Counted from the stretch's first letter, positions 30,500 through 59,156 are shown. The stretch is DNA of 59,156 bases from Escherichia phage vB_EcoM_PD328 (ON922918); one strand, 5' to 3'. Numbers and translations are program-made. The notes: generated by a model from the letters alone, not told the origin.

Positions 30500-30575
30500 T
30501 AGCGTGCTAATGGTTGCCCATTGTTACAGTGGGCTCCCACTAGCAATCCGCTAGATCAACATGGAGATAATCACA

Positions 30576-32047: not shown

Positions 32048-32115
32048 CATATACATTGCCCATAGTAACAGTGGGCAATAATATGCACTTCGCATAGTTA
32101 ACTGAGGAAACTATT

Positions 32116-32651: not shown

Positions 32652-33689
32652 CTTCTAACTGCATTATATAATCCGCGCCCTGTTGAAGTCCAACGGGGCG
32701 CTTTCGTTTTTGTACCCGCACCACCTCCCCGCGCTACCCTGCTGACCACATGTTACTCACCCATAACTCCACCATTCGCGCTCTAAGAGCGTAAACCCTT
32801 CCTCCGTATATTACCATTGACACAAATATAGTCGCCTTATACGCGCTTACAGCGATCCACTCCCTGCATCCCTGTACGCGATTTGGGGGCATTTTCACCC
32901 CTCGCTGCCACCCTTACACCGATCCAACCGCTTTATCGCGCTACGTGCCCCGTTTTCGCGGCTATTTTCGCTTTATGGGCGACCCGCTACACCGATCTCA
33001 GCCACCCAACCTCACCGAAAAGCCACCTTTCACCGAAAAATCCGGCATTTATACCATAAAATAGAATCGTTTTCGGGCTACAAAATTTCAAACTCAAAAA
33101 TCCGATTCGCTCCGAGAGTCACTTCAACAAAAATCGCTTGCAATCCAATTTTATTTTGTGTTAGACGCACGGGCACGCATTATGCGCAGGCGCCAGGCTC
33201 TGCCCTGTCTACTGACGAGCCAAATTTATAAAGTTCATAAATTCGTATATTTTCGCGTAATATACGAAATGAAAGGAGGTAAGTGCATGAAAAATAAGGT
33301 AAAAATGTGTATATGTGTGTATTTATATAAATTTTATAAAGATTTTTTGTTTTTTGAGTTGTCTACTGACGACCCTACGAGACCCCTTTATAAAATTTAT
33401 AAATTCACACGTTCCCCCCAACCCTCAAAATTTTCCCTTGTTTTTCATACACTTCGCTTCGCCGTTTCGTATATTGCTGGGTCTTTATAAATTGTGCATT
33501 TTTTCACCGATCTTTATAAATGTACAATTTCTCACCTTCAGACTGTTGTAATTTTTGCAAAAGCAAAAACTTTGCATATACAAAACACCGCAAAACATCA
33601 CAGTTGCAAATAGCAAAAACTTTGCATAAATTAAAACTTGGCAACTGAATTTCAAAATCAGTCGATTTATTATTATCAAGGGTGAGGTT
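32652..33689. repeat. about 1 kb non-coding repeat-rich region (candidate replication origin or regulatory/ncRNA locus)
   Basis: No credible ORF on either strand; GC-rich left part with repeated ACACCGATC and CACCGAAAA motifs; AT-rich right part with at least 7 copies of TTTATAAA-type palindromes and two copies of GCAAAAACTTTGCATA. Confidence 0.5.
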
Positions 33690-39408: not shown

Positions 39409-39445
39409 AAAAAAAATGGGCGCTATATGCGCCCATTATATTATT
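39407..39445. terminator. bidirectional rho-independent terminator
   Basis: A10 run, TGGGCGC-TATAT-GCGCCCA hairpin, then T/A-rich tail; between convergent stops at 39408 (+) and 39441 (-). Confidence 0.65.
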
Positions 39446-39671
39446 CATGCAATTCTAAGAAACCGCATACGACATATTCAAACATTTCATCATAATCCGG
39501 TGTTGAAAAGTCTCCAACGTGATACTCACCTTTCTCAAACGTAACCACAGTTGAAGAGTTCATGTATGTGTACTTAATCTTGTGAGTTCCGTCTATGCAG
39601 TTGTGTGAGAATTCCTCTGACTTGTTCATTGCATTTCTGATGTTTCTTTTTACAAGATCTTGGTGAGTCAT
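39441..39671 (-). CDS. hypothetical protein (isolated minus-strand gene within the plus-strand block)
   Basis: 76 aa ORF ending at the bidirectional terminator. Confidence 0.35.
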   Translation of the reverse strand: MTHQDLVKRNIRNAMNKSEEFSHNCIDGTHKIKYTYMNSSTVVTFEKGEYHVGDFSTPDYDEMFEYVVCGFLELHE

Positions 39672-42904: not shown

Positions 42905-42979
42905 TCATACTTAGGGGTATTTACAAGGAATTTAATTCTAAGTATTATACCCCTACTAGCAAACAACGAGGGCGATAAC

Positions 42980-46664: not shown

Positions 46665-46683
46665 TTAAAAATCATGTTATAAT

Positions 46684-46710
46684 AAAGCTCCTCCGGGAGC
46701 TTTATTTTTC
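46684..46710 (+). terminator. rho-independent terminator
   Basis: AAAGCTCC-TCCG-GGAGCTTT hairpin followed by ATTTTTC. Confidence 0.65.
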
Positions 46711-46726
46711 TATATAGGGTTATGAT

Positions 46727-50747: not shown

Positions 50748-51572
50748 ATGGCTAAAGAGAAAACTCCAGAGCAACTGGAAGCAGAAGAAGCAGCAAAGAA
50801 AGCAGCAAAAGAAGCTGAAGCAAAGAAAAAACGTGAAGCTGAAGAAAAAGCAGCACGTGAATTGCAGGCTAAAGTTGATGCCGCAATGAACGAAGCCACT
50901 GCCGGTTACAATGTGATCGAAGGTGTTGTGTCCGCTGTTAAAGAACAGTTTGACACTCTGCACGAAGGTTCGTTGCTGGACGAAGTTAAAGCAGTTGAAG
51001 GCGTAGTTACCGCTCAACTGAAGACCGCTAAAGAAGGTCTGAAAGCTGTTAAAGCAGCAGCACGTAAAGTTAAAGACAACGATCAACTGAAAACTGCCGT
51101 TGCAGCATCTGAAGATCTGGTTTCCGGTGTTGAAGCCACTCTGAAAGATGTTAAAGGCCGTGTATCCGCTGCCCGCGAAGCCACTAAAGCCGCTGAAAAA
51201 GCGAAACGTGACGCTGAACGCGCTGAGAAGAAACGTCTGCAAGACGAAGAGCGCGCTCGTAAAGCAGCAGAACGCGAAGCTAAGAAAGAGCCGGAACAGA
51301 ACGGTATTCGTAAGCCTGGTGTTGGTACTCTGTGCCGTGCTGCATGGGACATCTTTGATGCTGTTACCCTGGAGCTGGGCCAGACTGCACCGATCAGCTA
51401 CGTTCTGCCGGTTGCACTGGACAAAGGCCTGAACGAAGCGAACGTCAAAGCAGAATACGCTCGCTGGAAGAAATACATGGGCATTACTGGTCGCGTATCA
51501 GTTCCAGTACCTGCTAATATTGCACAGGCGGCCGCTAACGTAGAAATTCCGTCTCAGAAATCTGCAGAGTAA
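50748..51572 (+). CDS. Lys/Ala/Glu-rich coiled-coil protein of unknown function
   Basis: 274 aa; highly charged helical N-terminal two-thirds, distinct C-terminal domain of about 90 aa; own promoter and terminator; codon usage typical of highly expressed genes. Confidence 0.45.
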   Translation: MAKEKTPEQLEAEEAAKKAAKEAEAKKKREAEEKAARELQAKVDAAMNEATAGYNVIEGVVSAVKEQFDTLHEGSLLDEVKAVEGVVTAQLKTAKEGLKAVKAAARKVKDNDQLKTAVAASEDLVSGVEATLKDVKGRVSAAREATKAAEKAKRDAERAEKKRLQDEERARKAAEREAKKEPEQNGIRKPGVGTLCRAAWDIFDAVTLELGQTAPISYVLPVALDKGLNEANVKAEYARWKKYMGITGRVSVPVPANIAQAAANVEIPSQKSAE

Positions 51573-51596
51573 TCTGTAGACACTTCGGAAACTCAG

Positions 51597-51622
51597 AAGG
51601 GGCATTTACTGCCCCTTTGTTA
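51597..51622 (+). terminator. rho-independent terminator
   Basis: AAGGGGCA-TTTAC-TGCCCCTT hairpin followed by TGTTATC. Confidence 0.5.
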
Positions 51623-51640: not shown

Positions 51641-52405
51641 ATGTTTGCACAAGCCATTATCGCCCACCACTGGGCTCAAGCCAAATTTGGAAATCATATG
51701 AAAATTATTAATACTCAGGAACCTGAGAAGTTAGTTCGTGAACGTGGTATTCTTGACGTACATTCCATTTTTCATACCATTCAAGGCGAAGGCCCATTTT
51801 GTGGTCAACCTGCCGTATTCGTTCGATTAGCTGGTTGTAACCTGCAATGCCCAGGTTGCGATACAAACTATACGTCCAATCGTAAGAAAATGAGTCACAG
51901 TGATATTTGGCAAGAAATTGTTCGTGTCACTGGTGAAGCCAAGACTAAATTAGTTGTCATTACTGGTGGCGAACCTTTCCGTCAACCTGAAGTTGCTAAT
52001 TTTATCAACTACCTTATTGATATGAAAGGATATCGTGTGCAGGTTGAAACTAACGGAACTATGCCTATCCCGCGTGAACTCAACTATAACTGTGTGGTAG
52101 TATGTAGTCCTAAGGCAGCAAAGATTCACCCTAGCGTTTCCGCTCGAGCAAATGCTTTCAAATATGTAATGAAAAGCGGAAACGTCAACGAGGAAGATGG
52201 ATTACCGTTGCAGGCACTGGATCACCGTGCAACACCATTTATCGCACGTCCGCCTGTACACTTTAAAGGTAATATTTATCTTCAGCCTATGGATGAACAG
52301 GACGACGATGCTAATAAAGCAAACGCTCAAGCTGTCGTTAAATACGCAATGAAACATAATTATATCGTGCAATTGCAAGTTCATAAGTATTTAGGGGTTG
52401 AGTGA
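51641..52405 (+). CDS. queE: 7-carboxy-7-deazaguanine synthase (QueE, radical SAM)
   Basis: N-terminal HTIQGEGPFCGQPAVFVRLAGCNLQCPGCDT (QueE-type cysteine cluster) and VVITGGEPF; start taken at the ATG at residue 9 of the track ORF. Confidence 0.75.
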   Translation: MFAQAIIAHHWAQAKFGNHMKIINTQEPEKLVRERGILDVHSIFHTIQGEGPFCGQPAVFVRLAGCNLQCPGCDTNYTSNRKKMSHSDIWQEIVRVTGEAKTKLVVITGGEPFRQPEVANFINYLIDMKGYRVQVETNGTMPIPRELNYNCVVVCSPKAAKIHPSVSARANAFKYVMKSGNVNEEDGLPLQALDHRATPFIARPPVHFKGNIYLQPMDEQDDDANKANAQAVVKYAMKHNYIVQLQVHKYLGVE

Positions 52406-52656
52406 TGCGTGTAAAAGCTCTGTTTAAGACTACTAAAGTTATTGAGTTTCATGGTATTAAATTGACAGTTCCAAATTGGGTCACCTATCTTGCTTGTGAT
52501 AAAAACGGAACTCTGATGGGTTATGAAGGCGGGCCAATACATTGTAATGTGGAATATGGTCGTTGGGTTCCTGATATTGATGTTGGTTATTACGAGAAGA
52601 TTGCAAAAGTTGATCTTGAAGGGTTAGATTGGACTCGAACGTTGATTAAGGTATAG
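52402..52656 (+). CDS. hypothetical protein
   Basis: 84 aa ORF, start overlaps the QueE stop. Confidence 0.35.
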   Translation: MMRVKALFKTTKVIEFHGIKLTVPNWVTYLACDKNGTLMGYEGGPIHCNVEYGRWVPDIDVGYYEKIAKVDLEGLDWTRTLIKV

Positions 52657-52773
52657 AATGAAGTTATACGTTTTTGAAAACGCGTGGATGATCCCTGCCG
52701 CTAATGATCATTATGCGGGCGACGGTCAGCGTGCTAAAAGATACAATGTGTTCAACTAATAAGGTAAATTATT

Positions 52774-53526
52774 ATGATCAAATATGTCCAATTACTTGGT
52801 GAGATTGTTCCAGAAGATGTATTGAATAAGTGTCTGTTCGATGAAGACGGATTTGTAAAACATTATGTAGATACACCTTCACAGTTTGCATCTCACTCGG
52901 CTCTTGGATTTGTAATTCGAGCTGGATATGCAGTGGATGTGTTGAACGACATGAGTCCTACAGTCACTGTTTTTGTTGAAGGTATGGACGTACATGATCT
53001 TATGAATTTAAAGACCGTTTATAATACTCACGTCACGCCACCACGTAATGCACTTTACAAATGGCGTATCAATACTTCTGTTAGCAGAAGCCAGAAAGCA
53101 GCAGAAGAGAATGCCAAGAAGTATACGACATCTACTCAGAAATTAGCTTGTATGATGGACGATCTACTTAAAAACGCCTTTAAAGTTGAGCGGGACAAAG
53201 AAGGTGAGCCAGAAGTATTCATTAATGAAGCATTAATTAAAAAGGATCGTATCCAGGAGATTAAAGCTCCGCGTCCGAATAAATATATGCGCAAAATTAA
53301 AACTTTTGAATCGCATGATATTAACGGTAGCCCGATTGAAATTGATGTATGGGTTGACGTGTACGACGTAATTAAAGCATTCAATGTAACCAGTGGGCCC
53401 ATGCAACATACACTGAAGAAAGTGCTGTGTGCTGGTGAGCGCGGTCATAAAGACTTGCTGCAAGACCTCAACGACATTATTGCATCCGTTGAGCGTGAAA
53501 TTGAAATGGTTAAGGAAGGTAATTAA
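52774..53526 (+). CDS. hypothetical protein
   Basis: 250 aa ORF between queE and the Gat-QueC gene; no recognised motif. Confidence 0.4.
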   Translation: MIKYVQLLGEIVPEDVLNKCLFDEDGFVKHYVDTPSQFASHSALGFVIRAGYAVDVLNDMSPTVTVFVEGMDVHDLMNLKTVYNTHVTPPRNALYKWRINTSVSRSQKAAEENAKKYTTSTQKLACMMDDLLKNAFKVERDKEGEPEVFINEALIKKDRIQEIKAPRPNKYMRKIKTFESHDINGSPIEIDVWVDVYDVIKAFNVTSGPMQHTLKKVLCAGERGHKDLLQDLNDIIASVEREIEMVKEGN

Positions 53527-53527
53527 T

Positions 53528-54943
53528 ATGTGCTCTATCTTTGGTGTTATTACTAACGGTCAACCTGAAAGTCTTATCATTCGTAACGATATCAATGATC
53601 TTATTAAGGCTAGTATCAACCGTGGTCGTGACGGTCTTGGTGTACGCTTTACGCATGGTGACCACAGTATGCACCCGCAACGTATCGTCAGTGTCGGTAA
53701 GCAAACATCGCTGGAACGTCTTGTTAAAGTCGGGCGCATTACATCTCACGCTGGAGCTATTGGTAGCTTCACAATGATTGGTAACGCTCGCGCCGAACCG
53801 ACTACAGAGTGGGTTATTGACAAGAATGAGTGGGACCAGCAACCGTATCATATGGATGGTTGGACTATTGTTCATAACGGTACTATTGCGAACGATAAAG
53901 ACCTTCGTACCTATGCACTACAGACTAAAATTGATAGTGCTGCCATTGTTGAACAGTTAGCAGAATGTACACTTTCAGCGGATGAAATGTGTTTGTCTGA
54001 CTTTAATTACCTGTACAGTGTATTTCATGAAGTTATTCGTAAATTGAAAGGTAGCTTCGCAATCCTTGCAACACATGATTCCTTTCCGGGATGTGTGTTT
54101 ACAGCATGTAATTATCGTCCAATCTGGATCGGTAAGACTGATACTGGTATGTATTTCGCCAGCCAGGAAGACATGCTACCAACCCGTGCGATTAAGCAGA
54201 TGCTGAAACCTTATTCATGTAATGTGGTTACATCTACTGATGTATGCAATGAAGTTGATCTTATTCCAAATAAACAGACTCAACGCGCGTTAGTTGTCGC
54301 CAGTGGTGGCATGGACAGCACGGTGGCAGCTCAGATGTGCAAGTCCAATGGTCTGGAAGTCACTCTGATTAACTTCCAGTATGGTTGTCGTGCAGAAACT
54401 AATGAGTTAAAGGCTATTCGTAAGATTGCGGAAGTGATGGAAGTTCCGTTAGTTGAGTTCCCAATTCCAATCTACGATAAGAAAGACAGCCCGTTATTTG
54501 ATCAAGATGCTGCAATTGCTGGTGGCGAAGAAGGTGCTGAGTTTGCCCACGAATGGGTTCCAGCTCGTAACCTTGTGATGCTTTCTGTTGCTACTGCATA
54601 CGCAGAAGCTAACGGTTTCGACTATATTGTTCTTGGTAACAACCTAGAAGAAGCTGGAGCCTATCCGGACAACGAGCCTGAGTTTATTAACCGCTTTAAT
54701 CAGGTGCTACCATTCGCTGTAGGCGACGGTAAGCGCGTTGAAGTGCTCATGCCTGTAGGTAACTTAATGAAGCATGAAATTGTCGCTACAGGCCTGCGTT
54801 TAGGGGCCCCGCTTGAGCACACCTGGAGCTGTTACCGTAACGGGGATTTGCATTGTGGTACTTGCGGCCCTTGCATGATGCGTCGGACTGCGTTTAATAT
54901 TAATAACGCACAAGAAGTTATTAAATACGAAAGCGAGGCGTAA
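53528..54943 (+). CDS. queC: glutamine amidotransferase-QueC fusion protein (Gat-QueC)
   Basis: Starts MCSIFGV (N-terminal Cys nucleophile of class II amidotransferases); C-terminal half has the QueC PP-loop VVASGGMDST and zinc-binding CYRNGDLHCGTCGPC. Confidence 0.75.
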   Translation: MCSIFGVITNGQPESLIIRNDINDLIKASINRGRDGLGVRFTHGDHSMHPQRIVSVGKQTSLERLVKVGRITSHAGAIGSFTMIGNARAEPTTEWVIDKNEWDQQPYHMDGWTIVHNGTIANDKDLRTYALQTKIDSAAIVEQLAECTLSADEMCLSDFNYLYSVFHEVIRKLKGSFAILATHDSFPGCVFTACNYRPIWIGKTDTGMYFASQEDMLPTRAIKQMLKPYSCNVVTSTDVCNEVDLIPNKQTQRALVVASGGMDSTVAAQMCKSNGLEVTLINFQYGCRAETNELKAIRKIAEVMEVPLVEFPIPIYDKKDSPLFDQDAAIAGGEEGAEFAHEWVPARNLVMLSVATAYAEANGFDYIVLGNNLEEAGAYPDNEPEFINRFNQVLPFAVGDGKRVEVLMPVGNLMKHEIVATGLRLGAPLEHTWSCYRNGDLHCGTCGPCMMRRTAFNINNAQEVIKYESEA

Positions 54944-55267
54944 ATGAATAAATTGAGCAGCTTGGCAAGGATGGGTATAGCCCACAAGTGTTTCGGTAAT
55001 CCAATTCCTCAACAGGCTTATGATTTAATCGAAGCCGTTGAAGAAGCTATTTTGGACTTCAATCCTCAGTTGAAAGTGAATAAAGAAATTTACAAAGGAC
55101 ATAAATCACTTGAAGACATGATTAAAAGTCACATATCCGTATGGCGAGATGCGTTAGAAAAACTACATGAAGAGTCAACAGAACCGGATGATATAAGTTA
55201 TTATGCTCATGAACTTAGAGCACTCGCAGAGATTGAAGCAGCAGTTAAAGCAAAGTTAGGAGAATAA
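54944..55267 (+). CDS. hypothetical protein
   Basis: 107 aa ORF between the queC and queD homologues. Confidence 0.35.
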   Translation: MNKLSSLARMGIAHKCFGNPIPQQAYDLIEAVEEAILDFNPQLKVNKEIYKGHKSLEDMIKSHISVWRDALEKLHEESTEPDDISYYAHELRALAEIEAAVKAKLGE

Positions 55268-55268
55268 A

Positions 55269-55790
55269 ATGGGTTACACTGTTATTCGTTCACATGAGAT
55301 TTGCGCTGGTCATCGTGTTGTAGGGCATGAAAGTAAATGTCGCCACCTTCACGGTCACAACTATAAGTTCCATTTTAAAGTTGCGCCGAAGAAGACATTG
55401 TCGGAAGGTTACGTTAAGTCTGTAAGTGGATTTGCTCTAGAAGGATCCTTGGACGATGTAGGTCGCGTTATCGACTTTAGTGTGGTTAAAACTACACTCT
55501 GCCAATGGTTGGAAGATAACTGGGATCATAAGTTCCTGCATTGGAATCGTGATAATTTGATTGACGCTTTAAAAATTGCAGCAAGTCGCCCGAGTTGCCC
55601 TCTGGAACATGAAGACCATGAGCATTTCTTAAACTCGTTGGTAGCTTTACCATTCAACCCAACTGCGGAAAACTTAGCTGCATATATGGTTGACGTAATT
55701 GGTCCTCAACTGCTTGACCAATATGGTGTTGAATTGGTAGAATGCACCATTGAAGAAACGTCCAAATGTCATGTTAACTATTGCAAATAA
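55269..55790 (+). CDS. queD: 6-carboxy-5,6,7,8-tetrahydropterin synthase (QueD-like)
   Basis: CAGHRVVGHESKCRHLHGHNY zinc-binding Cys/His pattern typical of QueD/PTPS. Confidence 0.7.
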   Translation: MGYTVIRSHEICAGHRVVGHESKCRHLHGHNYKFHFKVAPKKTLSEGYVKSVSGFALEGSLDDVGRVIDFSVVKTTLCQWLEDNWDHKFLHWNRDNLIDALKIAASRPSCPLEHEDHEHFLNSLVALPFNPTAENLAAYMVDVIGPQLLDQYGVELVECTIEETSKCHVNYCK

Positions 55791-55816
55791 TTGACCACAC
55801 AAGGAAACTGCAAACC

Positions 55817-56431
55817 ATGAATGAATTTACAAAGATGACAAACCGAGCAGAAATTTCGCACAGTATTGAAAAGATTTTAAAGTTGATTGAAGGTGGCGAT
55901 GACTTGCGTGAAGGTTTAGTTGAAACTCCATTGCGCGTCGCTAAAGCATTTGAGACGTGGTTCGGGGGTTATTCTGTCGATATCGCATCCCTGTTCAAGA
56001 CATTTGAAGATGGTGGGGAAAACTGCGATGAAATGGTCATCGTCCGTGATATCCCTGTCTACAGTCATTGTGAGCATCATATGGCTCCTATTATTGGTCA
56101 TGCTGTGGTCGGGTATGTCCCGAATGGAAAAATTGTTGGCCTAAGTAAGTTATCTCGTGTGGTTGATGCTTTTAGCCGTCGTTTGCAAGTTCAGGAGCGT
56201 CTGACTAACCAGATTGCGGATGCTATCGTGGAACACTTAGACCCAAAAGCTGTGTGTGTTTACATTGATGCAAAACATATGTGTATGGAGTCGCGCGGTG
56301 TTAAACAAGTGTGTGGAAGCTCAACCATTACTAAAGCATTCCGTGGGCGTACTGCATTGGGCGATGGTGTATTACCTGATGTGACGGGTGACACATGGCG
56401 TCGGGAATTTCTTGAAGCGTGTAAAAAGTAA
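55817..56431 (+). CDS. folE: GTP cyclohydrolase I (FolE)
   Basis: Conserved SHCEHHMAP active-site motif and GTP cyclohydrolase I-like flanking regions; start at the ATG at residue 13 of the track ORF. Confidence 0.75.
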   Translation: MNEFTKMTNRAEISHSIEKILKLIEGGDDLREGLVETPLRVAKAFETWFGGYSVDIASLFKTFEDGGENCDEMVIVRDIPVYSHCEHHMAPIIGHAVVGYVPNGKIVGLSKLSRVVDAFSRRLQVQERLTNQIADAIVEHLDPKAVCVYIDAKHMCMESRGVKQVCGSSTITKAFRGRTALGDGVLPDVTGDTWRREFLEACKK

Positions 56432-56466
56432 CTGATTTGCGAATCATACATTATCTTTAATATAAT

Positions 56467-56491
56467 AAGCGCCTACGGGCGCTTATTTGTT
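56467..56491 (+). terminator. rho-independent terminator between folE and the DpdA-like gene
   Basis: AAGCGCC-TACG-GGCGCTT hairpin followed by ATTTGTT. Confidence 0.6.
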
Positions 56492-56500
56492 AGGTGAACA

Positions 56501-57454
56501 ATGCACAGAGAAGACATCAACTATACCTTTCAGATTTATATGGCTGCCGTGTATACGAACAGCTATAAACCGGGAATGAACCGCTATGTTAAACTCAACG
56601 AACAAGAAAAACGTGTTGTCGAAAATATTCCAAACATTCTTGAATCCTGGCACTACGTTGGAAAGCAATCATATGTTGATGCCATGCGTGCCGATGGGGC
56701 CAAGATATTCCTCGACTCCGGAGCGTTCTCAGCTTACACTTTGGGAGTTACGTTATCAGTTAAAGAATACTGCGATTATATCCAACGAAACATAGATATC
56801 ATTCGTGTAGAGGATGGTTCACTTATGGCTTCTGTACTCGATGGTATCGGAGATCCACTTCAAACGTGGCGCAACCAGGAAGAGATGGAAGCCAGGGGTG
56901 TAAGACCTTTACCATGCTTCCACGCGGGTGAACCTTTTGAATACCTGGACCATTATGTGCGAAATTATGAATACATCACTCTTGGTGGTCTTGTTGGAGC
57001 GAGTACACAACAACTCCAGGTATGGTTGGACAGGGTATGGGATAAACACCTTGTGGACGGTAGTGGGCGCGCGAAGATTAAAGTTCACGGATTTGGTATT
57101 ACGTCCCGTCCACTTATGGAGCGTTACCCGTGGTACTCTTGTGACTCATCCTCCTGGATCCAATCTGCAGCGTTCGGTGCTATTGAAACGCCTAAATGGG
57201 GGCCAATGCAGGTATCAGAAAAGTCTCCGTCACGTCACTATCAAGGGCAGCATATTTGTAACCTTTCAGAAATAGAACAGAATAACGTTCTACGCTACTT
57301 AGAGGAGTCAGGTTTCACATACGAGCGACTTTCAACGATATACGAATCACGCGCTGCATATAATTTATGGGCGTATGGTGTGGTCAACGCTATGATTCTT
57401 GCTAACCACAATGGGAAGTTCAACGAACGTCTCCAGGATTTATTTGACGAGTAA
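56501..57454 (+). CDS. dpdA: DpdA-like 7-deazaguanine DNA transglycosylase (TGT superfamily)
   Basis: TGT-fold-like motifs IFLDSGAFSA and VHGFG; immediately downstream of the preQ0 biosynthesis genes. Confidence 0.6.
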   Translation: MHREDINYTFQIYMAAVYTNSYKPGMNRYVKLNEQEKRVVENIPNILESWHYVGKQSYVDAMRADGAKIFLDSGAFSAYTLGVTLSVKEYCDYIQRNIDIIRVEDGSLMASVLDGIGDPLQTWRNQEEMEARGVRPLPCFHAGEPFEYLDHYVRNYEYITLGGLVGASTQQLQVWLDRVWDKHLVDGSGRAKIKVHGFGITSRPLMERYPWYSCDSSSWIQSAAFGAIETPKWGPMQVSEKSPSRHYQGQHICNLSEIEQNNVLRYLEESGFTYERLSTIYESRAAYNLWAYGVVNAMILANHNGKFNERLQDLFDE

Positions 57455-57462
57455 GGTTACTT

Positions 57463-58455
57463 ATGGATTTACTTGATGCTTTAAAGTTTGTTCAGGGTTC
57501 TGTAGCTAAGAAAGAACTCCAGGAAGGTTTAACTCACTTCCGTATTGTTGATGGTACTGTTCGCGGGTTCAACGGAACTATTTCATTGTGTAGCCCAGTA
57601 CCTTTGAACATTGACTGTACACCGAAAGCTGAACCAATGCTCAAGGCTATTGCAGCATGTGACGAAGCTGTACAGATGACAATGTTAGCGAACGGTAAGT
57701 TGAGCATTAAGTCTGGTGGCTTTAAGGTTAGTGTAGATACTCTTCAGAAACCAACTGCACACGTAGAGCCAGAAGGAACGATTCACGAAATAGACGGTCA
57801 GCTTTTTCTTAACGGTTTAAGCCGCGTAACGCCGTTTATAAGCGACGATGCTTCCCGCCCGTGGTCTTGTGGCGTGCTGGTAAAACAGGGCAGCATGTAC
57901 GCGACCAACAACGCTAGTATTATACAATATTGGTTCGGTGCTGTGTTCCCTGTTGATTGTGTTGTACCACGTATGGCCATCAAAGAATTATTGCGCATTA
58001 AAAAGCCACCAGTAAGAATTCAATGTACAGATACCAGTATGACATTTCACTACGAAGACGGTTGCTGGTTGCGTACCCAATTGCTGGAATTAAAGTGGCC
58101 CAACATTGACAAGATAATTGAGCGTACAGAAAAGGGGTCTGACGTCTATACGCTTGATACTGAACTTTTTAACTGCTTAGAGAAAATAAAACCGTTCTGT
58201 GAACGTGATGGGCGTATTTATATGGAAAATGGCGTCGTGCGTACCCATTACAACGAGCTGGACGGTGCTAGTGCAATGTTCCGTGAATCCAAGTCAATTG
58301 GCGTGTATAATATAGATCTTATTATGCAGTTGAAAGGACTTGCAACGGATTGGGACGCTTCTCGTTTCAATGAAAAGGACGAAAGGGGTCTTTCAACTCC
58401 TATTATTTTTTATGGTGAAAATCTACGTGGGGTAATTGTAGGATTTCGTCTATGA
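57463..58455 (+). CDS. DNA polymerase sliding clamp, beta-clamp (DnaN)-like (putative)
   Basis: 330 aa; pattern similarity to bacterial beta clamp over three repeated domains; directly upstream of, and overlapping by 4 nt, the DNA polymerase gene. Confidence 0.45.
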   Translation: MDLLDALKFVQGSVAKKELQEGLTHFRIVDGTVRGFNGTISLCSPVPLNIDCTPKAEPMLKAIAACDEAVQMTMLANGKLSIKSGGFKVSVDTLQKPTAHVEPEGTIHEIDGQLFLNGLSRVTPFISDDASRPWSCGVLVKQGSMYATNNASIIQYWFGAVFPVDCVVPRMAIKELLRIKKPPVRIQCTDTSMTFHYEDGCWLRTQLLELKWPNIDKIIERTEKGSDVYTLDTELFNCLEKIKPFCERDGRIYMENGVVRTHYNELDGASAMFRESKSIGVYNIDLIMQLKGLATDWDASRFNEKDERGLSTPIIFYGENLRGVIVGFRL

Positions 58456-59156
58456 GAAAAGATGCTATTGGTTTCTTTTGGGAGGATTTACCTCCCGCTA
58501 AGAAAGAGAAGAAACAGAAAGTAAAACGTCAACCAGTTGAAAGGGTATGGGAGCGCCCAGACTACCTTCCAGGTCTTGATGCAGCAATGCGTTTTGCAGC
58601 TAACGATCCGCGTATGACAGACGGTGAGTTAGTGGAGATGTATTTTGCACAAGAAACGTTCGTATACGATATCGAATGCTATAAGAACTATTTTCTTGTA
58701 GCGTTTAAAGGGGTTAAGTTCGGTAAGGTTTATTATCTAGAAATGACTGCCGGTCAGACACTTGACACGGAAAAGTATGAATGGATAATGAAGAACTTTC
58801 GTACCGTTGGTTTCAACTCAAGAAACTACGATAATACGATGACATTCCTTGCCATTGCGGGTCTGACTGTTGACAAGCTGAAAGAAGCAAGTGACAGGAT
58901 GATCCAGGAAGAGTGGGCCCCGTGGGACGTTCTCAACAGTTTTGGTGTGGAGCAGTTTTGGATTGACCACATTGACGTTCAAGAAGTAGCGCCTGGCTTC
59001 GGTTCACTGAAGCTGTATGGTGGCCGTATGCACATGCAGAAGCTCCAGGACTTACCGTTCCCAGCGCATTGGGCGCTGTCCATAGAGCAGATTGCTATTG
59101 TGCGCTTCTACTGTATTAACGACCTTGATACAACAATGGCTCTGTTTAACTCACTG
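58452..59156 (+). CDS. DNA polymerase, 5' part (continues at position 3 across the window join)
   Basis: ORF runs to the window end with no stop; contains an exonuclease-I-like FVYDIE motif; last 125 nt identical to the first 125 nt and in frame with the 3..1394 ORF. Confidence 0.7.
   Translation, partial: MRKDAIGFFWEDLPPAKKEKKQKVKRQPVERVWERPDYLPGLDAAMRFAANDPRMTDGELVEMYFAQETFVYDIECYKNYFLVAFKGVKFGKVYYLEMTAGQTLDTEKYEWIMKNFRTVGFNSRNYDNTMTFLAIAGLTVDKLKEASDRMIQEEWAPWDVLNSFGVEQFWIDHIDVQEVAPGFGSLKLYGGRMHMQKLQDLPFPAHWALSIEQIAIVRFYCINDLDTTMALFNSL

Follow-up and report, generated by a model that had tools for sequence, protein, structure and literature searches.

A candidate terminator-promoter junction between the base-synthesis genes and dpdA in Escherichia phage vB_EcoM_PD328

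Introduction

In Escherichia phage vB_EcoM_PD328 (ON922918), the preQ0/G+ synthesis genes queE, gat-queC, queD and folE lie directly upstream of dpdA, which encodes a 7-deazaguanine DNA transglycosylase of the DpdA1 type and is itself followed by a clamp-like gene and polB. Are the enzymes that make the modified base and the enzyme that inserts it into DNA expressed from the same transcript? An earlier note on the window (the whole stretch of DNA analysed here, 59,156 nucleotides) proposed that they may not be: an intrinsic terminator between folE and dpdA would separate the transcription of base synthesis from that of DNA insertion, and dpdA would be transcribed together with the clamp and polymerase genes.

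The answer to which we lean, if only slightly, is that the gap between folE and dpdA compactly joins two transcription units, by combining a leaky intrinsic terminator with an overlapping promoter of the sigma-70 type. The terminator part of this proposal deserves more confidence than the whole, while the promoter part, which is deduced from the sequence, stands at about even odds.

A terminator-like hairpin after folE

The hairpin starts 33 nt past the folE stop codon, inside the sole sizeable gap (69 nt) between folE and dpdA (Table 1). Its stem is formed by AAUAAGCGCC (56464-56473), paired with GGCGCUUAUU (56478-56487), and closed by a UACG loop (56474-56477); the five upper pairs are G-C and the five pairs at the base are A-U. 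The 32-nt segment that contains it folds with an energy of -16.0 kcal/mol (z = -4.92), and none of 200 shuffled sequences folds as well. The nine nucleotides after the last G-C pair read TTATTTGTT, and the first five of them can pair with the upstream A-tract. A scan that permits the T-run to overlap the A-U base of the stem lists the site. The presence of a hairpin and a T-run between the two genes is therefore confirmed, with the corrections that the T-run is imperfect and that the hairpin begins 3 nt further upstream than the earlier note had placed it.

Such sites are in excess in this part of the genome. With a cut-off for strong hairpins of dG (folding free energy) <= -15 and at least 6 T in 8 nt, four are found on the + strand of 27950-59156, versus none in each of 40 dinucleotide shuffles, and six of the seven hairpin-plus-T-run hits on this strand are intergenic. 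The six intergenic sites of the early strand are at 32675, 39415, 41881, 46681, 51596 and 56464. The last two flank the queE-folE block exactly, and the Seurat genome is annotated likewise. The upstream one sits between a 274-aa open reading frame (ORF) and queE and folds with -14.3 kcal/mol (z -4.25); a terminator is annotated at the equivalent spot in HdK1, and Seurat has one upstream of queE.

The hairpin itself is already known as a terminator in sister genomes, where it is a matter of routine annotation. In GenBank, HdK1 and HdSG1 each have a "putative transcriptional terminator, -15.90" recorded at the homologous position, predicted with ARNold (PMC6563267), and the SP8 record also has a terminator there. 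The sequence is identical in these three phages (AATAAGCGCCTACGGGCGCTTATT, reported energy -15.9). In Seurat (Seuratvirus), the terminator annotated after folE occupies the same junction as in the window and is a different hairpin. All these records flag a predicted terminator only, and do not mention a promoter overlap, invariance, the bracketing of the base-synthesis genes or a recurrence in other genera. What sequence comparison adds here is that the junction is kept in many lineages, that the base-synthesis module is bracketed and that a promoter is probably built into the terminator.

A small second stem-loop, UGAUU-UGCG-AAUCA (56433-56446), lies right after the folE stop codon and overlaps the -35-like hexamer described below. 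It is invariant among the Nonagvirus genomes save one change in FritzHoffmann.

A promoter-like site that overlaps the hairpin

The promoter scan detects a site that the earlier note had not seen and that would give dpdA its own start. It consists of a -35-like TTGCGA (56437-56442) and a -10-like TATAAT (56461-56466) that matches the consensus at all six positions, and the final three nucleotides of the latter are the initial three nucleotides of the hairpin stem. Its position weight matrix (PWM) score ranks seventh among the sites on the + strand of the window and first among the intergenic ones. The + strand of 27950-59156 contains only 11 TATAAT, three of which (32667, 46678 and 56461) abut terminator stems.

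Constraint on the gap within Nonagvirus

The comparison within the genus covered 13 Nonagvirus genomes. None of the 24 columns of the hairpin varies, which leaves no room for covariation at this level. The gap as a whole has 7 variable columns out of 69, four of them in its last 12 nt and only in FritzHoffmann, in which an inserted ORF takes the place of the ribosome-binding region. In ESCO3, the change G56489A lengthens the T/A run of the U-tract. The promoter-like site (both hexamers and the 18-nt spacer) is also invariant, save one change in the spacer of JenP1. In the flanking genes, 37-65% of the third codon positions are variable. The invariant block extends from about 56388 to 56510, and reaches 45 nt into folE. 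Near-identity between the window, 9g and JenP1 is also seen in the other terminator-bearing gaps, but it tells little there because the flanking genes are near-identical as well.

The junction in other genera

Seuratvirus, Craquatrovirus, Nipunavirus, Iggyvirus, Amoyvirus, MiCath and MMDA13 share the order folE, gap, dpdA, clamp, polB. An alignment of DpdA was used to scan IMG/VR, which added 80 loci, and folE is upstream of dpdA in 87 of 88 loci. Twenty-two distinct hairpins of unrelated sequence were curated from these junctions and 21 were analysed, MiCath (L017) being left out because the search pattern did not fit it. They begin 10-37 nt past the folE stop codon, and most are followed by 5-8 T within 9 nt. 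Two lineages differ by a compensatory change (AAGGGCC/GGCCCTT in L096, AAGGCCC/GGGCCTT in L097). Some other lineages have inserted ORFs at the junction. Taken together, the sequences indicate that the junction signal is common and independently maintained, and that it is not obligatory.

The promoter-like features recur along with the hairpins. In seven genera, the best promoter-like site of the gap is in the top 0.01-0.1% of its locus. A hexamer with at least five of the six TATAAT matches is found in 19 of the 21 hairpin lineages (5.4 are expected from shuffles), either 1-10 nt before the G-C core or in the loop. In 11 of 20 junctions, the hexamer is preceded at 16-18 nt by a TTG, versus none of the six hexamers found at terminators of the late arm, which were used as a control. 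It is the TTG at -35 that separates the folE-dpdA junctions from the control terminators. In L045, L055 and L082, where the hexamer lies about 10 nt upstream and the hairpin would thus lie inside the new RNA, the T-run is weak; this fits a model in which transcription otherwise starts inside the hairpin.

Proposed mechanism

A polymerase that leaves the queE-folE block would transcribe the stem-loop and its U-rich tail, and a fraction would be released in the U-tract, whose interruption suggests that the stop is incomplete. On the same DNA, the host sigma-70-type promoter would have its -35 element in the gap and its -10 element running into the 5' arm of the stem. Transcription is expected to start 6-9 nt past the -10 element, at about 56471-56475, which is inside the hairpin. 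An RNA started there lacks the 5' arm and therefore could not form the terminator. It would carry the Shine-Dalgarno sequence AGGTGA and read dpdA, the clamp gene and polB, which would make up the last unit of the early arm.

More generally, most gap-bearing DpdA1 phages may share a conserved two-in-one signal in which the -10 element lies in the stem or loop of the terminator and the new RNA escapes the hairpin, a design that would recur in the window at 32667-32712 and 46678-46712. We consider this generalization possible, just short of an even bet. If it is true, the signal insulates the expression of the DNA-inserting enzyme and of the replisome genes from that of the base-synthesis genes. 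A terminator-promoter junction between folE and dpdA would mean that the level of the transglycosylase is set together with the replisome, independently of the base-making enzymes. In these phages, 7-deazaguanine modification follows replication (PMC10516641), so that the share of the genome that is protected from restriction should depend on when DpdA is made in comparison with the base supply and the polymerase. The gap would also be a small, invariant and well-delimited part for testing or reuse, and it marks a hot spot of endonuclease insertion.

The two transcriptional proposals of the earlier note are reasonable but only partly supported. The separate transcription of base synthesis and base insertion is favored by the anatomy of the terminator, the recurrence of hairpins in 21 lineages, the bracketing of the block and the kept gene order, and is weakened by the interrupted U-tract, which makes read-through likely, and by the lineages that have neither gap nor hairpin (see below). 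The co-transcription of dpdA with the clamp and polymerase genes is plausible from their tight packing (8 nt between the dpdA stop and the clamp start, and a 1-nt overlap between the clamp gene and polB), and the hairpin-plus-T-run scan detects no terminator-like site between the three genes.

Weighing of the alternatives

Several observations weigh against a terminator combined with a promoter. The U-tract is broken by an A and a G, and the stricter terminator scan did not list the site, because the T-run overlaps the A-U base of the stem and the tail rule failed. The -35-like hexamer matches the consensus at only four of six positions, the spacer of 18 nt is not optimal and a TGn extension is missing. 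Six + strand sites located in coding or antisense sequence score as high by PWM, so that the score alone proves little, and a lax promoter scan yields no more sites than shuffled sequences and is uninformative by itself. Five of ten terminators of the late arm also carry a 5-of-6 hexamer beside the stem, which indicates that the A/T-rich flanks of terminators inflate the hexamer count. In several Pseudomonas-type lineages, the TTG at -35 falls in conserved Leu-Ala codons of folE. In about 17 distinct lineages, such as MMDA13, folE abuts dpdA with no gap or hairpin, and separate transcription is therefore not required by the pathway. Lastly, the searched literature holds no mapped RNA 3' or 5' ends for Nonagvirus or other Queuovirinae. 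Several of these points favor a leaky terminator (an attenuator) only, which would lower the flow of polymerase from the base-synthesis genes, with dpdA, the clamp gene and polB expressed by read-through from promoters further upstream and TATAAT a by-product of an A/T-rich flank that pairs with the U-tract. The gapless lineages show that read-through expression of dpdA works, and the authors of the 9g study predicted that the 28-kb early arm as a whole has a single promoter (PMC4276943). With one predicted promoter and six terminators, read-through, antitermination or internal promoters are needed. This explanation leaves aside the TATAAT-type hexamers that lie in hairpin loops, where there is no A-tract logic (PSTCR4, L032, L081 and Seurat), the unequal occurrence of TTG at the correct -35 spacing in junctions and controls, and the fact that the 32 nt on the 5' side of the hairpin vary as little as the hairpin does. 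We regard it as unlikely, although it has to be taken seriously.

If a real promoter starts transcription upstream of the stem, the hairpin would instead be promoter-proximal, at the 5' end of the dpdA mRNA, with a role either as a stabilising stem-loop or as a switch that causes premature termination and gives a short RNA. Such arrangements exist, since ONT-cappable-seq located 42 phage terminators inside 5' untranslated regions, with short and long transcript modes (PMC10914365), and the position of the hexamer about 10 nt before the stem in L045, L055 and L082 would suit them. In the window, the -10 element overlaps the stem by 3 nt, which places the start in the 5' arm or the loop and prevents the hairpin from forming, and the same start-inside geometry is seen in NP1, R7M, L096 and L098; a promoter-proximal role is therefore improbable. 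The invariance of the gap has a possible explanation that involves no signal at all, in that it could result in part from recombination or homing at a mosaic boundary rather than from selection. Over 55269-58455, the mean divergence among the 13 genomes is about 14% for queD and folE, which have many changes at first and second codon positions, and drops to 6.6% for dpdA and 4% for the clamp gene; the invariant gap borders both regimes. In its full form, this explanation holds that the 120-nt invariant block (56388-56510) is kept uniform by exchange during co-infection and by endonuclease insertion, and that the hairpin is incidental or insulates the inserted gene. The endonuclease ORFs found between the hairpin and dpdA in SP8, SE1, JenP1, FritzHoffmann and NP1, the divergent 5' end of dpdA in endonuclease-bearing genomes and the extension of the invariance to synonymous sites of folE all point in this direction. 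It does not explain why unrelated genera have a hairpin and a hexamer of their own whether or not an endonuclease gene is present, nor why the other terminator-bearing gaps share the same anatomy without insertion polymorphism. As a replacement for the terminator-promoter junction, it is distinctly improbable, but the two are compatible. A ligand-sensing or protein-binding element (a preQ1-type riboswitch, another known RNA family or a palindromic operator over the promoter) is the least credible possibility, and we give it hardly any weight. The pathway product preQ0 is related to known riboswitch ligands, and a perfect 10-bp inverted repeat with a 4-bp centre that covers the -10 element and the expected start is in a typical position for an operator. 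However, no Rfam family matches at its gathering threshold anywhere in the window, which largely refutes the riboswitch version for known RNA families (in 56300-56650, the only hits are sub-threshold terminator stems of small RNAs, with 17-23 bits versus thresholds of 54-70). As for the operator, the six hairpins of the window and the 21 of its relatives share no sequence, and hence no common operator, and all have T-rich tails.

Comparison with known systems

Canonical Rho-independent terminators of E. coli and its phages include hairpins with UNCG tetraloops. The hairpin of the window resembles them in its G+C-rich stem, its C(UNCG)G loop, the pairing of an A-tract with the U-tract and its position just past a stop codon. 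It differs from them in its interrupted U-tract (UUAUUUGUU) and in a stem whose 5' base also serves as TATAAT. A literature search for published cases of a promoter inside a terminator gave nothing usable.

In lambda-type early operons, internal terminators are overcome by antitermination. The window is similar in having a long early arm with one predicted promoter (PMC4276943) and several intrinsic terminators, and differs in that no protein similar to N or Q is detectable. The candidates for an antiterminator or phage sigma factor were two ORFs hinted at by RefSeq (76 and 121 aa), whose sole matches are to families of unknown function, with none in Pfam; no search was made for nut- or qut-like sites.

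The Pseudomonas phages studied by ONT-cappable-seq (PMC10914365), among which there is no member of the Queuovirinae, also have early regions with several terminators, promoters and terminators close to each other, and long and short transcripts. Their terminators include operon-internal ones with read-through, and their transcription units overlap. In these phages, the terminator lies past the start site, in the 5' untranslated region, whereas in the window the expected start is inside the hairpin.

Genome context and gene content

The window is a complete, circularly assembled Nonagvirus genome (phage 9g-like, Queuovirinae). Positions 1-125 and 59032-59156 are identical over 125 nt, which indicates that the circular assembly was opened inside polB; this gene runs across the junction and resumes at 126-1394. 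Over 55700-57600, the identity to HdK1, JenK1, 9g, JenP2, BRET, SE1 and others is 88-95%. On the + strand, the gene order is queE, two unknown ORFs, gat-queC, a 107-aa ORF, queD, folE, the gap, dpdA, the clamp-like gene and polB. The identities that the earlier note had given to the genes on either side of the hairpin hold (Table 1).

Table 1. Features of the folE-dpdA region and of related loci (positions refer to the window unless a locus is named)
Feature	Position	Strand	Basis
274-aa ORF before queE	50748-51572	+	ORF 5' of upstream bracket hairpin
Upstream bracket hairpin, GAAGGGGCA-UUUAC-UGCCCCUU, then UGUUAUCUU	51596-51618	+	Stricter scan and overlap-permitting scan
7-deazaguanine base-synthesis block, queE to folE	51641-56431	+	Pfam Radical_SAM, QueC plus GATase, PTPS, GTP_cyclohydroI; NCBIfam FolE
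queE	51641-52405	+	Pfam Radical_SAM
gat-queC	53531-54943	+	Pfam QueC plus GATase
107-aa ORF between gat-queC and queD	54944-55267	+	phrog_24659, function unknown
queD	55269-55790	+	Pfam PTPS
folE	55817-56431 (stop 56429-56431)	+	PF01227 at 2.7e-62; NCBIfam FolE
Sigma-70-type promoter-like site, TTGCGA-18-TATAAT	56437-56466	+	Promoter scan, 10/12 matches; putative function
Terminator hairpin (predicted), 10-bp stem, C(UACG)G tetraloop	56464-56487	+	Folding, scan, annotation of homologous sites
U-rich tract, TTATTTGTT, 7/9 T	56483-56491	+	Predicted RNA 3' ends; overlaps A-U base of stem
Shine-Dalgarno AGGTGA and dpdA ATG	56492-56497, 56501-56503	+	Sequence, ORF list; same start annotated in 9g, JenK1, others
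dpdA, DpdA1-type 7-deazaguanine DNA transglycosylase, 317 aa	56501-57454	+	9g DpdA identity, phrog_887
Sliding-clamp-like processivity factor	57463-58455	+	phrog_947 at 8.5e-82; weak TIGR00663 dnaN match
polB, family B DNA polymerase, first part	58455-59156	+	phrog_1252 at 4.4e-64; 1974-nt orthologue in HdK1
Inserted endonuclease ORFs	L002 3802-4290; L010 1789-2283; L011 1786-2274; L012 1780-2268; L015 2555-2998; L005 2764-3303		

The dpdA product is 99.7% identical to 9g DpdA over its 317 amino acids and matches phrog_887 at 2e-98. It has no Pfam family at E <= 0.001 (relaxing the threshold to E <= 1 gives only a chance-level match, E 0.1, to a family that is not TGT); NCBIfam likewise yields none at E <= 0.01, and no solved structure reaches a meaningful E-value. 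The missing match to a curated TGT or DpdA profile reflects the content of the libraries and does not outweigh the near-identity to the 9g enzyme, which is classed as DpdA1 and acts after replication (PMC10516641). Together with Gat-QueC, 9g DpdA places dG+ in DNA, and the 9g orthologues of the base-synthesis genes have been functionally tested (PMC6884629).

In minimum-energy folds, the Shine-Dalgarno sequence of dpdA looked sequestered by the flank on the 5' side of the hairpin. This was rejected on the basis of pairing probabilities: over 16 lineages, the mean for the Shine-Dalgarno sequence is 0.59 with the full-length RNA, 0.61 with a start inside the hairpin and 0.61 when the upstream flank is shuffled.

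Within the base-synthesis block, gat-queC and queD are separated by only 1-2 nt in the 9g, HdK1 and JenK1 records, versus the 107-aa ORF of the window. Small ORFs ahead of queD are also present in BRET (a 330-nt ORF), ChristophMerian and FritzHoffmann.

Endonuclease insertions around dpdA

A hot spot for the insertion of homing endonucleases flanks dpdA, and the window has neither of the inserted genes. An endonuclease VII/HNH-like ORF (phrog_1035) lies between the hairpin and dpdA in SP8, FritzHoffmann, SE1 and JenP1, and NP1 has a "homing endonuclease" at this place. In ESCO3, an HNH gene (PF13392) is found between dpdA and the clamp gene. The equivalents of the two insertion points in the window are 56500 and 57455-57462. 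The inserted ORF opens with ATGCACA, as dpdA does, in SP8, SE1 and JenP1, and not in FritzHoffmann. In these same three phages, the first 150 nt of dpdA (56518-56650 in the window) have a common, strongly divergent sequence, which may be a cleavage-resistant variant of the target or a co-conversion tract.

Other signals of the early arm

The sites at 32667-32712 and 46678-46712 have the same design as the folE-dpdA unit, with a TATAAT, a strong hairpin and a T-run. The one at 46678 also has an extended -10 element (TGTTATAAT) and a UCCG loop, and its sequence resembles that of the folE-dpdA unit.

The hairpin at 39415-39437 is symmetric, its two sides bearing an A-run and a T-rich tail, respectively, and lies between the primase gene (+ strand) and a lone 76-aa ORF on the - strand (39441-39671). 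The RefSeq entry of the 9g orthologue of this ORF bears the note "similar with transcription elongation factors"; by profile, it matches only phrog_17131, whose function is unknown. At 42915-42958, the inverted repeat AGGGGTAT / ATACCCCT surrounds TTTACA-17-TATTAT, the second best intergenic promoter-like site, and is not followed by a T-run.

Finally, a 21-nt near-palindrome, TTGCCCATnGTwACAGTGGGC, occurs twice in gaps of the early arm (30514-30534 and 32056-32076), where none is expected. The copy at 32056-32076 fills the space from TTGCCC to TAATAT, as an operator over a promoter would.

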